From a candidate division WOR-3 bacterium (lineage in GTDB: Bacteria; Hydrothermota; Tepidihabitantia; Tepidihabitantales; Tepidihabitantaceae), in NCBI GenBank assembly GCA_965649295.1, contig CBFGKH010000002.1, forward strand, positions 192,001 through 256,000: a DNA stretch of 64,000 nt, given 5' to 3'. Positions 2,851-6,699 of this stretch are shown here, one piece after another. Under the pieces are notes generated by a model. The model saw only the letters and a program-made list of their open reading frames with translations, had not been told where the DNA came from and did not search any database. Position numbers and translations under genes: made by a program. The first letter of the stretch is position 1. Each line of letters starts with the position of its first letter.

Positions 2851-4773
2851 CTAGTGGGTCAGAATCAGTTTGGCCTCGGTCTGCTTACCGGCGGAGTTAG
2901 CACGGCAGAAGTAGATGCCAGGCGAGACCAACTGGCCGTGGTCGTCTCGGCCATCCCAGATTGCTGTTCCGGGTTCGAGCTGGCGAATCTGGCGACCGAT
3001 TGCATCACAGATGGTGAAGCCGGTGGGATTAGTAGTTGCAAGCCTGACGGTCTGACCGATGCGGCCAGGATTGGGCCAAGCCTGAATCCGGGCCCGCTGC
3101 GGCTGAGCCGGTATTTCGGCAATCCAGGTGAGCGGATCGTCGGTCACGTATTTGATTGCCCGGCCCGGAGCAAGACGGGCTGCGCCACGATGGTAGGTTC
3201 CGTCAAAGAGGCACTGGATGGCAATCGTGGCGGTCGGGTCCTGGATGCCGACTGTGGCTGAGCCGTAGCCGTTGGTGGTCAGGTATTGGGCGATGAGGAC
3301 GTTGTCGCCGGTAGTAGTGTGGACCGTGGTGTCGTAGATGATGAGCTGGAAGGTCTCCCAGGTGGTGCGCGATGCATAGGTGGGGATGCTGTCGTATTCG
3401 ATAATCAGCCGGTGGTTTTCCGGTTCATGGCGATACCAGATACCGCGGCCTTCAGGCGGATAGAGGTCGTCCCAGTTGAGACAGACCATTGGTGGCATAC
3501 CGGCTGCCGGTAGTGCGGCATTGGTGTAGGTGGCGATGCTGGTACTGCCCGGAGCGACAAAACCGTTGCTGCAGATTGAGAACTGGGTGTAGGTCTGACC
3601 GTAGTAACGCCAGACAAAGCCGGCTGGCAATGGGAAAGTCAGGGTCTGGTCGTCGCCCAAGATGACCTGGGTGCTTGGCATGCCGGCAATCTCAACCCAA
3701 CTGAACTGGGGATGGTTGGGATAGAGCGTGTCACATTCGTCGTAGGCCCAGTAGCGGGGCGGCTGGCGCGGGCCGTCAGGAATCGGGTCCTGAGCGCGGA
3801 TTTCGCCAACCACGACGCGCAGCGTGATGGTATCGTTCCAGGTGCCGGAGATGAGGAGCTGAAGCTCGGCGCTGTGCTCCAGCGGGCAGTTCGGCGCCGC
3901 GGCTAGGCGGAAGGGGGTCGCGGCGTTGTTGCGGGTTGAATCGGGCAGGATGGCAGGATAGGTACAGGTCGAGTCGAGTACGCTGACAAACGGGTCACTC
4001 GTGCGCAGCCGAGCATTGACGACTGTTGCCGGCTGGGTGCCGACATTGCGCAGGCCGATAATATAGCTGGCAGTCTCGCCCGGGTCGAGCTTGCGGTCGT
4101 TGTTGCCGCCGGGCGGCGGGTCGTAGATTGTTCGCTCGCTACAGACGAGATACGGGCCGCTAGCAGTTGAGACTAGGGAGATGTCGTCGGCGAAGACCTT
4201 CGCCGTCGGCGTCCCTCAGCCGGAGTAGGTGTAGCTGTAGAGCGCTACCTCAATCTGGGCGATGTCGCCGGGATTGACGCCCGGCAGGTTCTGGCTGACC
4301 TCGTCAACGACGTTGAGGGTGTAGCGCTGCCAGGCCGGATTGGTGATGCGGTAGAGACTGAGGGTTGGGCTCGGCACCCAGTTGGCATAGGTGGAATAGT
4401 AGTACCGGGTCTCGCCGAGCAGGTTTGAGGCTAGGTCGTAGTAGCAGACGCTGAAACAGGCTGCCGGCCAGCAGGTCGAGACCCCGCCGCTTTCGGCAAA
4501 ACTGGCCCAGAACTCAAGCTGAACAAGCGGACCAGGAACCATTACGGTTTGGCCCAGGCGTGCCCAGCCCGGGTTGTCGTATTGTCGGGTCATCGCCTCG
4601 TAGTCTGGGTCAGGGTGATAGGTGGTCGAGCGGTCGGCTGAGGGCGTGCCAGTGCCGCCGTAGGTGAATGTCCAACCGACCGTCAGCGGTTGTTCAAAGT
4701 CGCCATTGGTCAGCAGATTCTGACCGCCGGCAACCGCCAATAGTAGCGGTAGGAGTAGAATAGTCTTCTGCAA
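2851..4773 (-). CDS. Secreted protein, about 640 aa if the in-frame UGA at 4216-4218 (codon 186) is recoded: signal peptide, CBM4/9-like jelly-roll, Ig-like domain, further beta domain, FlgD/T9SS-like tail
   Basis: ORFs 4216..4773 and 2851..3813 are in the same frame; the 134 codons between them are open and protein-like (GTPTAKVFADDISL...GNNDRKLDPGET...LRNVG); SD AGGAGG before TTG; tail IWDGRDDHG..VSPGIYFCR..KLILTH. Confidence 0.85.
4188..4205 (-). promoter_or_regulatory. Candidate bacterial SECIS hairpin
   Basis: mRNA UGA-GGGACGCCGA-CGGCGAA-GGUC-UUCGCCG: 7-bp stem with GGUC loop starting 10 nt after the UGA. Confidence 0.65.
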
Positions 4774-4797
4774 GGTGCCTCCTTTTTGGCTGAGTAG

Positions 4798-4860: not shown

Positions 4861-5226
4861 TCAGTCTGGTGCTCGCTTTTCTGGCTGGCGGGCGTCGCGA
4901 ATCATCTCCTCGACACGCTCCTGCTGCGGTTTCTCTTCGGCAATCCGCTGGACATGCTCGAACTCAGCAGCGACCATTGCCCCAAACTCTTCAATCTCGG
5001 CCAGGCAGCGCTTGCCCGACCGGTGGGCAAAACCGCGCAGCGACTCGAGCAGTGATTCGTAACCGCGGTCAGAGGTGTAGCGGGAAAGGACATAGCGGGC
5101 AACAAAGGCACCACAGGCCGCGCACTTGACATAGACACAGGTGTCCTGGCCGGTGCGGACATAGACCAGGTTGGTCATCTGGGTGCCGTGGCAGCGGGGG
5201 CAGCATTCAGCCTTGGCCTTTTCCAT
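4861..5226 (-). CDS. Small zinc-ribbon hypothetical protein
   Basis: CPRC...CAAC pairs, acidic helical C-terminus; SD AGGAG directly after the transporter stop. Confidence 0.75.
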   Translation of the reverse strand: MEKAKAECCPRCHGTQMTNLVYVRTGQDTCVYVKCAACGAFVARYVLSRYTSDRGYESLLESLRGFAHRSGKRCLAEIEEFGAMVAAEFEHVQRIAEEKPQQERVEEMIRDARQPEKRAPD

Positions 5227-5235
5227 AATTGTCTC

Positions 5236-6597
5236 CTACAGATAGCCGAACAGCTTCGACAGGGCCAGGACCACACCGAGCACGACGAACAGGCCAGCGG
5301 CGCAGACGATAGCGCCAGTTAGGGCCATTGTCCGGACCTTGATGAGGCCAGAGCCATAGGCGATAGCGTTGGGTGGTGTTGATATCGGCAGAATCATTGA
5401 CAAGGAGACTGCGATGCCGGCAGCGAGGACAAGCGGGACCGGATGGCCAGAGAGGCCGGCAACGAGCGGCAGCAGCATTGCAGCGGCGGATGTATTGGAG
5501 ATGAAGGTTGTCACGACGATTGCCGCCAGCATTACGACGCCGGCAAGCAGCAGGGGACTGAGGCCGTCGAGGTGGAGCGAGCTGAGCAGCCAATTGGCAA
5601 GGCCGCTACTACGAATTGCAACGCCAAGCGACAGCCCACCGCCCATCAGGATGAGAATATCCCAGCCGATGCGACCGAAGTCCTCGCTATCGAGGAACCC
5701 GAAGCCGGTGAAAATCAGTGCGGGAATGGTGGCAATCACGGCGGACGGAACGTGATGGAGTTCGGTTGTGAGCCAGAGCAGGACAGTGATGGCAAAGACG
5801 GCGATGATTACCTGCTGGTGCCGGTTCAGCGGCTCACGCCGCGACGGGGGCAGGGCCAGTGACCCAGTTCGGGCTGGGAAGCGGCGTAGCAGCAGCCACC
5901 AGATAAACAGAAAAAGCAGCACGGTCACCGGCAATCCGAAGAGCATCCACTGGCTGAAAGAAATGCGGATGCCCTGTCGAGCCAGGATGCCGATGGCGAT
6001 AGCATTGGGTGGTGAGCCGATAGGGGTGGCGATGCCGCCGATGTTGGCGGCGAACGGAATGCCAAGAATTAGGGCGGTGCGGAATGGCTCGTCGTCAGGC
6101 AGGCCGCGGATGATGGTCAGGCCCATGCCGATGAGCAGGGCGGTGGCGGCGGTGTTGGACATCCACATCGAGAGGAACGCGGCGACAAACATCATCCCGA
6201 GCAGGACCCGGCTGGGCCGAGTGCCAGTCCGTTCGAGAATCAGGCCGGCAAGCAGAGTGTCGAGGCCGAACTTACCGAGTGTCTCGGACAGCACAAATCC
6301 GCCGAGGAAGAGCATGATGACGTTGTCGAAGAACGGAGCAATGAAGACCGCCGGTTCGAGTCGCAACGGGCCGGCGAGCAGGAGCACTTCGAGCAGAACG
6401 ACGAGGAATGAGGTCGAGTAGAGCGGAATTGCCTCAGTGACCCAGAGATAGGCAGCCACGCCAATAATGGCGAGACAGCGCCGAGCCGGTTCGGGCAGCC
6501 CAGGCAGCGGCAGGAAGTAGGCAACAACGCCGCAGAGGAGCGCAGCACCGGCGTGCACCAGCCGGCGCCTGAAGGTTGGTTCGGTGGCGTGGGACAT
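5236..6597 (-). CDS. DASS/SLC13-family sodium:anion (di/tricarboxylate or sulfate) symporter
   Basis: Many TM segments; SMWMSNTAATA, ANIGGIATPIGSPPNAIA, FISNTSAAA, LPISTPPNAIAY. Confidence 0.92.
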   Translation of the reverse strand: MSHATEPTFRRRLVHAGAALLCGVVAYFLPLPGLPEPARRCLAIIGVAAYLWVTEAIPLYSTSFLVVLLEVLLLAGPLRLEPAVFIAPFFDNVIMLFLGGFVLSETLGKFGLDTLLAGLILERTGTRPSRVLLGMMFVAAFLSMWMSNTAATALLIGMGLTIIRGLPDDEPFRTALILGIPFAANIGGIATPIGSPPNAIAIGILARQGIRISFSQWMLFGLPVTVLLFLFIWWLLLRRFPARTGSLALPPSRREPLNRHQQVIIAVFAITVLLWLTTELHHVPSAVIATIPALIFTGFGFLDSEDFGRIGWDILILMGGGLSLGVAIRSSGLANWLLSSLHLDGLSPLLLAGVVMLAAIVVTTFISNTSAAAMLLPLVAGLSGHPVPLVLAAGIAVSLSMILPISTPPNAIAYGSGLIKVRTMALTGAIVCAAGLFVVLGVVLALSKLFGYL

Positions 6598-6699
6598 CGC
6601 GTCTTTGGCGTAGTCTAGCCAAAGAGTAGCGGCAGGCAAGCAGCGGTTGCTAGAGGTTGGCCTGCGGGTTGTTGGGGCCTCTGGCGAGTGGTGTTCGGG

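Follow-up and report, generated by a model that had tools for sequence, protein, structure and literature searches.

Gene A, on the minus strand of a 64,000-nucleotide stretch of DNA from a hot-spring bacterium of candidate division WOR-3 (assembly GCA_965649295.1, contig CBFGKH010000002.1, positions 192,001 to 256,000; this whole stretch is called the window below), is an otherwise open reading frame that contains a UGA at codon 186. We are highly confident that this codon is a selenocysteine (Sec) codon served by a selenocysteine insertion sequence (SECIS) of the canonical bacterial type, and that gene A belongs to a genuine new family of secreted selenoproteins. The family is large, widespread and mis-annotated, and it occurs in WOR-3 and in some neighbouring candidate phyla. 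A sequence-only reading of the window had proposed that a functional SelB-type SECIS makes codon 186 Sec, and the proposal is supported by the Sec machinery of the host genome, the conservation of the TGA, covariation within the hairpin, the co-occurrence of the family with selA, the existence of homologues with Cys at the Sec column, and a structural model of the domain. The features on which the argument turns are as follows, in window coordinates.

2851..4773, minus strand: gene A, a single 640-codon reading frame with the UGA at codon 186 as its sole interruption.
4216..4218, minus strand: UGA186, very probably read as selenocysteine.
4205..4215, minus strand: 11-nt spacer from the UGA to the hairpin, GGGACGCCGAC, encoding G-T-P-T.
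4189..4204, minus strand: putative SECIS hairpin GGCGAA-GGUC-UUCGCC (GGCGAAGGUCUUCGCC), within codons A191-K-V-F-A195.
4198..4195, minus strand: GGUC loop of the putative SECIS hairpin.
4168..4722, minus strand: Sec-containing jelly-roll domain, residues 18-202, with a predicted fold like that of a carbohydrate-binding module (CBM), from AlphaFold and Foldseek.
4168..4206, minus strand: last β-strand of the predicted jelly roll, residues 190-202, TAKVFADDISLVS, encoded 3' of the UGA, from DSSP.
4471..4473, minus strand: Cys101 codon TGC in the peptide STCWP, candidate selenylsulfide partner.

The order of elements given in the sequence-only reading, with the UGA followed by the 11-nt spacer and then by the hairpin, agrees with the DNA letter by letter. 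The three peptides named there are likewise all present in the gene A translation, namely NLLTNGDFE (residues 19-27), STCWP, and VFADDISL (residues 193-200), which lies 7-14 codons past the UGA. The Sec context in gene A is SGUG, without a vicinal Cys.

The hairpin is under RNA-level selection. We fetched 95 loci of the family, which a filter reduced to 92 unique sites; the remaining three loci also have the TGA and the hairpin, and the expected retention of the hairpin in homologues that keep the TGA was thus seen at all 95. Covariation was tested over seven pairs in 89 distinct rows (623 cells), with 500 shuffles and with slid controls. The bases are paired in 99.7% of the 623 cells, as compared with 30-65% in the slid controls, and none of the 500 shuffles reached the observed paired percentage, number of double-change cells or covariation score. 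Compensatory changes in the stem, which had been suggested as a check on the hairpin, were found among the homologues, with double changes at five of the seven pairs and in 65 cells in all. Pair 4-13, which joins the third base of the first Ala codon with the third base of a Phe, Ser or Leu codon, is G-C at 85 sites and A-U at 7 with no mismatches, and the A-U form is seen on four different hairpin backgrounds. Pair 1-16 is G-C at 85 sites, C-G at 3, G-U at 2, A-U at 1 and A-G at 1. Both of these pairs join synonymous or nearly synonymous positions. Two other pairs, 5-12 and 6-11, are non-synonymous and couple a change of K to E, R or Q with a change of F to S, L or C, which is why the peptide alternates among AKVFAD, AEVSAD, ARVLAD and AQVCAD; the K/F, E/S, R/L and Q/C switches match the two pairs exactly, and the variants AEVFAD and ARVFAD are the G-U wobble intermediates.

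Codon use within the hairpin is narrow. The first Ala codon is GCG at 85 sites and GCA at 7, against a background in the same genes of 41% GCC and 22% GCG, while the Val codon is GUC at 85 sites and GUU at 7, with GUG and GUA never used, and the Lys codon is AAG in all 38 cases. The loop is GGUC at 85 sites, AGUU at 6 and GGUU at 1; its central GU is invariant (92 of 92), and the flanking bases co-vary. The spacer measures 11 nt at 49 sites, 14 nt at 42 and 17 nt at 1, and no conservation of a helix outside the 16 nt was seen across the 92 sites. Among the 18 representatives that are without the TGA, the same peptide position is far more variable (AWAYAD, ATTYAD, AELWAD and others). As judged from these sequences, this suggests that the protein may need only an aromatic residue at this position and that the SECIS dictates the rest.

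The combination of TGA and hairpin was also sought across the host genome, in a scan of the 3045 TGA sites that are preceded by at least 60 open codons and followed by at least 40. A 6-bp stem with an NGUN loop 8-23 nt past the TGA is found at six of the 3045 sites, and three of the six are gene A and its two TGA-bearing paralogues; judged by this genomic context, the arrangement in gene A exceeds what chance would give. The three matches outside the family look non-coding, and translation of C1:3649-4161 gave no convincing protein. Altogether the host genome has four genes with the gene A N-terminal domain, three of which carry the TGA at the same column together with the hairpin. The paralogue on contig C3 has an 11-nt spacer followed by GGCGAGGGUCCUCGCC, and the paralogue on contig C9 has a 14-nt spacer followed by a hairpin identical to that of gene A. 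The fourth gene (C3:200276-202174) is without the TGA, without the hairpin and without a Cys in the STCWP strand.

The sequence-only reading had likened this hairpin to the SECIS of Escherichia coli fdhF. The E. coli letters that it gave are found in the consulted portion of PMC10945757, and the 11-nt spacing of the E. coli element in that of PMC8659212; the parts of the likeness that stand are the position of the element, this spacing and the GGUC apex. As far as the consulted text of PMC8659212 goes, both elements lie within the open reading frame right after the UGA, the gene A stem-loop starting 11 nt past it. From the corresponding part of PMC10945757, both present a GGUC apical loop with a central G-U, in an element of 16 nt in gene A and 17 nt in E. 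coli. The E. coli element is described in the same excerpt of PMC8659212 as having a bulged U17 and a spacing of 11 nt from the UGA. The gene A family, in contrast, has no conserved lower stem, has the 14-nt spacing at about half of its sites, and has the AGUU loop at a minority of them.

The host genome (2.28 Mb) carries the Sec machinery, with a tRNA-Sec (72.9 bits; called as SeC with anticodon tca by ARAGORN), selB (345 bits), selA (576 bits) and two selD genes, each with its own in-frame TGA. The selD TGAs stand at the active-site position, and the genes lie outside the window, within C1:355394-358244, directly adjoining selB, and at C1:318451-319377. Their hairpins are unlike those of the gene A family, with loops GUA/GGUAC and AGUUG that by our reading are located about 29 and 18 nt past the UGA, and they too have a GU apex. 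A reassigned genetic code, with TGA read as Trp or Gly, is ruled out, since TGA closes 430 of the 1149 frames of at least 300 codons in this genome and is therefore an ordinary stop there. With this machinery, the 16-nt hairpin located 11 nt past the UGA would display a G-U apex at the end of a stem of 6 bp, or of 7 bp should the outer bases of the loop pair, and the host SelB carrying Sec-tRNA(Sec) would bind the hairpin and deliver Sec at the UGA in place of termination.

The TGA is conserved across the family. A search with gene A residues 1-230 against 272 genomes of the phylum gave 261 matches in 107 of the genomes, and 150 of these matches were listed. Exactly one TGA is present in 149 of these 150, the exception being a match that spans query residues 6-121 only; the 111 matches beyond the listed 150 include at least the TGA-less paralogue of the host. 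The family also tracks the machinery, as selA (E <= 1e-30) was found in 122 of the 272 genomes, comprising 101 of the 107 family-positive and 21 of the 165 family-negative genomes, among which related genomes are not independent. Scanning all species genomes with a DNA pattern gave 80 loci with DNA, 44 of them family sites with an in-frame TGA 5-6 codons upstream; the remaining 36 are chance matches without an in-frame TGA, mostly in Actinomycetes. By the depositors' labels, the record titles of the family sites include metagenome-assembled genomes (MAGs) of Candidatus Stahlbacteria, Eisenbacteria, Krumholzibacteriota, Cloacimonadota and Thermoanaerobaculales, and on these titles the family therefore reaches beyond WOR-3.

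In a profile search of 1.84 billion representative proteins, 407 were found at E <= 0.001, and the best 150 of them were examined. The sequence ends at the Sec column in 103 and within about 12 residues past it in 17; 12 are shorter fragments, and 18 pass through the column. Two of these 18, P0124 and P0149, have Cys at the Sec column.

We modelled the N-terminal domain with AlphaFold from an alignment of 63 sequences in which the TGA was read as Cys, with model residues 174-186 corresponding to residues 190-202 of the full-length protein. The model is a β-sandwich (predicted local distance difference test, pLDDT, 95.8; predicted template modelling score, pTM, 0.90). Its last two strands are model residues 157-167 and 174-186 by DSSP, and residue 170, which is Sec186, is in the turn between them. 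A prediction with Cys at position 186 had been suggested as a check, and in it the strand past the UGA completes the sandwich. As the final strand is encoded 3' of the UGA, the 185-residue stop product would lack it, as had been claimed; in the model this strand occupies residues 190-202. Foldseek matched the model to CBM61, CBM11, CBM4-2 and phage tailspike lectin-like domains, with TM scores of ~0.45-0.57 across the top matches; the best match is 2xom_A (E 5.7e-8, TMq 0.49), and 281 PDB matches were obtained at E <= 0.001. By its predicted structure the domain is a generic CBM jelly roll. It shares with CBM61, CBM11 and CBM4-2 the predicted β-sandwich fold and opens with an NGDFE-type first strand, and it differs from CBM modules in that it is without a sequence family match, Pfam returning none at E <= 0.1 and NCBIfam none. 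We know of no CBM that carries Sec.

The model and the family alignment together offer a candidate partner for the Sec. Among the 92 sites, Cys is present only in the STCWP strand in 56, only directly before Sec (CU) in 29, in both positions in 5 and in neither in 2; the last two have a Cys at -3 or +4. The strand Cys is thus found at 61 sites, mostly those without a Cys directly before Sec, and the CU form at 34 (for example HCUG, TCUG and GCUS). This near-exclusive pattern, read from the alignment, fits the need for a single selenylsulfide partner. If the standard jelly-roll strand order holds, the start of the Cys101 strand would adjoin the end of strand 157-167, near the Sec turn. The pairing of Sec186 with Cys101, which the sequence-only reading had put forward, is plausible. 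We regard a Sec-Cys101 selenylsulfide, and any redox or binding role, as hypotheses that are evenly poised. A vicinal selenylsulfide is found in thioredoxin reductase, within a C-terminal Gly-Cys-Sec-Gly redox centre, and the 34 family sites with Cys directly before Sec resemble it in this respect. The settings differ, as the motif of the gene A family would lie in a β-hairpin turn of a secreted jelly roll, whereas that of thioredoxin reductase is on the flexible C-terminal tail of a flavoenzyme.

Several observations weigh against reading codon 186 as Sec, or limit how far the evidence for it reaches. Judged by folding energy, a 76-nt stretch gives z = -0.47, and 61 of 200 shuffled sequences are no less stable; thermodynamics alone therefore proves nothing. 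An Rfam search of 4100-4300 at E <= 10 returned no family and only noise, the best match being a microRNA model at 17 bits. The stem of the gene A family is a perfect 6 bp, with a bulge at 0 of 92 sites, and since the bulged U of the E. coli element is missing, the gene A hairpin is a relative of the fdhF SECIS rather than a copy, similar and not identical to it. In the covariation test, the shuffle control overstates significance because related genomes are not independent, and part of the conservation of the hairpin comes from the protein because the hairpin lies in a conserved peptide. Sixteen of the 18 representatives that pass through the Sec column have A, V, I, E, P, L or a gap there; P0155 has Ala between two Cys, and P0268 has Leu. 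Mapped on a tree, the strand Cys shows 6 changes and the CU state 5, with 2 independent pairs on supported branches, and the test of a Sec-Cys partner is therefore without statistical power. No RNA sequencing runs containing the gene A stretch were found.

The remaining points of this kind concern the machinery. At E <= 1e-30, selA was not found in six family-positive genomes, of which five were searched for tRNA-Sec. It is present in G223 (77.6 bits) and G145 (75.1 bits) and borderline in G128 (48.1 bits), and no match above the cut-off was obtained in G160 (76% complete) or in G133 (90% complete, one contig), in both of which the family genes keep the TGA. For G133, the assembly may lack the machinery, or there may be another explanation. 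Its two family genes, at loci L128 and L130, both have the TGA and the hairpin.

The rival explanation that survives best, which we nonetheless consider improbable, is readthrough that does not depend on a SECIS. The hairpin would slow the ribosome and a near-cognate tRNA (Trp, Cys or Arg) would read the UGA, or a regulated mix of 185- and 640-residue products would be made without selenium. Readthrough can be stimulated by structures 3' of a stop codon, the database protein P0003 shows W at the Sec column, and G133 and G160 have TGA-bearing family genes with neither selA nor a tRNA-Sec match above the cut-off detected. The W of P0003, however, is probably a table-4 translation of TGA. P0003 and locus L059 differ at 7 of 656 residues (99% identity), and the W198 of P0003 alone is TGA in L059, the other 17 W being TGG. 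G133 and G160 are 90% and 76% complete, and across the phylum the family tracks selA in the proportions given above, 101/107 versus 21/165. Homologues with Cys at the column exist, and a true Trp homologue was not found among the pass-through representatives. Finally, in its invariant GU apex and its spacing of 11 or 14 nt the family agrees with the E. coli SelB-binding element, to the extent that the excerpts of PMC10945757 and PMC8659212 describe it.

A true stop at the UGA is more improbable still. The locus would then hold two genes, one for a 185-residue protein and one for a protein translated separately downstream, and the hairpin would serve in coupling or regulation. Public gene calls do split family genes in this way, into an open reading frame of ~187 residues and another of ~450 residues; 103 of the best 150 representatives end at the column, and many ~450-residue proteins start just past it. 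When the full-length query is used, these ~450-residue database proteins begin MAEVSADD or VAKVFADD, and they were therefore called from a start codon inside the hairpin. Such starts lie within AEVSADD, a strand that belongs to the sandwich in the model. In gene A itself, 454 codons are open after the UGA, and the first 134 of them include no ATG, GTG or TTG. No frame shift is seen across the TGA in the 149 listed TGA-bearing matches, and TGA-less homologues are contiguous through the column. Substitution at third positions likewise goes on in this frame past the UGA. The gene A stretch is covered at ~93-96% identity by contigs from three metagenome runs on hot springs, belonging to two studies. 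Of the 40 differences listed (50 further exist), 38 affect the third base of a codon in the gene A frame; these include all 13 listed ones that lie downstream of the UGA, and none of the 40 falls in 4187-4218. A raw-read run gave 0 aligned reads.

A pseudogene or an assembly error, with the TGA as a recently arisen mutation or a misread TGG, TGC or TGT codon, calls for a single base change and is nevertheless effectively refuted, since an identical codon occupies this column in 149 of the 150 listed matches from the search with its 107 family-positive genomes, in three host paralogues, and in loci labelled as Eisenbacteria, Krumholzibacteriota, Cloacimonadota and Thermoanaerobaculales MAGs.

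With codon 186 read as Sec, the product would be a 640-residue secreted protein composed of a signal peptide, a CBM-like jelly roll, a stalk module and a sorting tail of the type IX secretion system (T9SS). The Sec would be placed in the β-hairpin turn just ahead of the last strand of the domain, and most likely a neighbouring Cys would join it in a selenylsulfide, so that the cell surface would carry a centre that is redox-active or binds a ligand or metal. For gene A the candidate partner is Cys101 of STCWP, and for other subfamilies it is the CU Cys, or the Cys at -3 or +4. The further features of gene A are the following.

4778..4783, minus strand: AGGAGG, Shine-Dalgarno-like, 4 nt ahead of the TTG start, as read from the sequence.
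4773..4771, minus strand: TTG start codon of gene A.
4723..4773, minus strand: putative signal peptide, residues 1-17, hydrophobic LLLPLLLAVAGG, from a by-eye reading of the translation.
2854..4167, minus strand: C-terminal module of ~440 residues.
2863..3078, minus strand: weak T9SS type A sorting domain, residues 566-637, TIGR04183.
2853..2851, minus strand: TAG stop codon of gene A.

The TIGR04183 match in gene A scores 17.7 bits versus a cut-off of 23, while homologue P0007 scores 38.9 bits, and PF18962 or PF13860 is present in many gene A homologues. The C-terminal module (2854-4167) is the same module that is found in WOR-3 peptidases, where it recurs at the C-terminus of M14 carboxypeptidases and of S8 and C25 peptidases (homologues P0038-P0121). 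The large middle part of the module matches no Pfam family, apart from FlgD-Ig and the T9SS tail. Since the Sec domain is N-terminal to a peptidase-shared module that ends in a putative T9SS sorting domain, it occupies the position of the functional head on a secreted or surface protein. Upstream on the gene A strand are a small Cys-rich protein of 121 residues (CxxC...CxxC; 4861-5226, minus) and a membrane protein of 467 residues (5236-6639, minus), which by eye resembles an anion or dicarboxylate permease.

Family genes come in two forms, a long one of ~640 residues or more and a short one, with open frames of ~300-345 residues, that consists of the Sec domain and a short C-terminal region. 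They often stand in tandem (G204:C22:20572-22205, G146:C5:76709-82884, G191:C44 and G113:C48), and up to 9 matches occur in one genome (G193). In five genomes, which represent four families of the phylum, selA and a family gene share a contig at a distance of 3.6-10 kb (G113:C48, G198:C133, G197:C14, G147:C233 and G162:C37). This proximity could be chance or could reflect a functional link to selenium use; in the host genome, the family genes and selA are on different contigs.

Prokaryotic selenoproteins are described, in the consulted part of PMC9312934, as mostly redox enzymes. The deep-Sep study (PMC12013277), in the portion of its text consulted, reports as new families a TonB-dependent receptor, SelO-like, PyrG, Ndh, DUF523, FDH3 beta and three hypothetical proteins of Desulfobacterota. 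The evidence given there is of the same type as for the gene A family, namely a conserved UGA, Cys homologues and a bacterial SECIS. The consulted portion of its main text mentions no WOR-3, secreted or sorting-domain selenoprotein, and no secreted or surface family is mentioned in the corresponding parts of selenoprotein reviews and of the deep-Sep paper. Within the portions of the literature on WOR-3, T9SS or new bacterial selenoproteins that were covered, no description of the gene A family was found. We tentatively suggest, as a possibility that we hold to be rather doubtful when taken in full, that this is the first family of cell-surface, T9SS-displayed bacterial selenoproteins. It would be built on a lectin-like jelly roll and not on an oxidoreductase fold, would have expanded to up to 9 copies per genome within WOR-3 and extend into other FCB-group candidate phyla, and would expose an extracellular selenylsulfide formed with a strand or vicinal Cys.

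Reading the codon as Sec puts right the annotation of a multi-copy family of surface proteins in a phylum without cultivated members. At present, more than 100 genomes call family genes as a ~187-residue head without the last strand and a ~450-residue tail that starts inside a β-strand, and table-4 translation by some pipeline, as P0003 suggests, would hide the selenoprotein from searches. The ~95 sites also form a natural SECIS data set which, as far as comparison of the sites can define it, would indicate what the SelB of this lineage needs, that is a stem of 6 bp with GU at its apex, placed 11 or 14 nt past the UGA. As the hairpin lies inside a conserved peptide, the K/F, E/S and R/L switches show a SECIS constraining the protein that it overlaps. 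A secreted lectin-fold selenoprotein would widen the known uses of Sec. If the proposal of a surface-displayed family is true, the exposed selenylsulfide could act in the capture or reduction of sulfur, selenium or soft-metal species, or redox-gate ligand binding, and the short distance between family genes and selA, seen in several genomes, is a hint that the family is linked with selenium acquisition.

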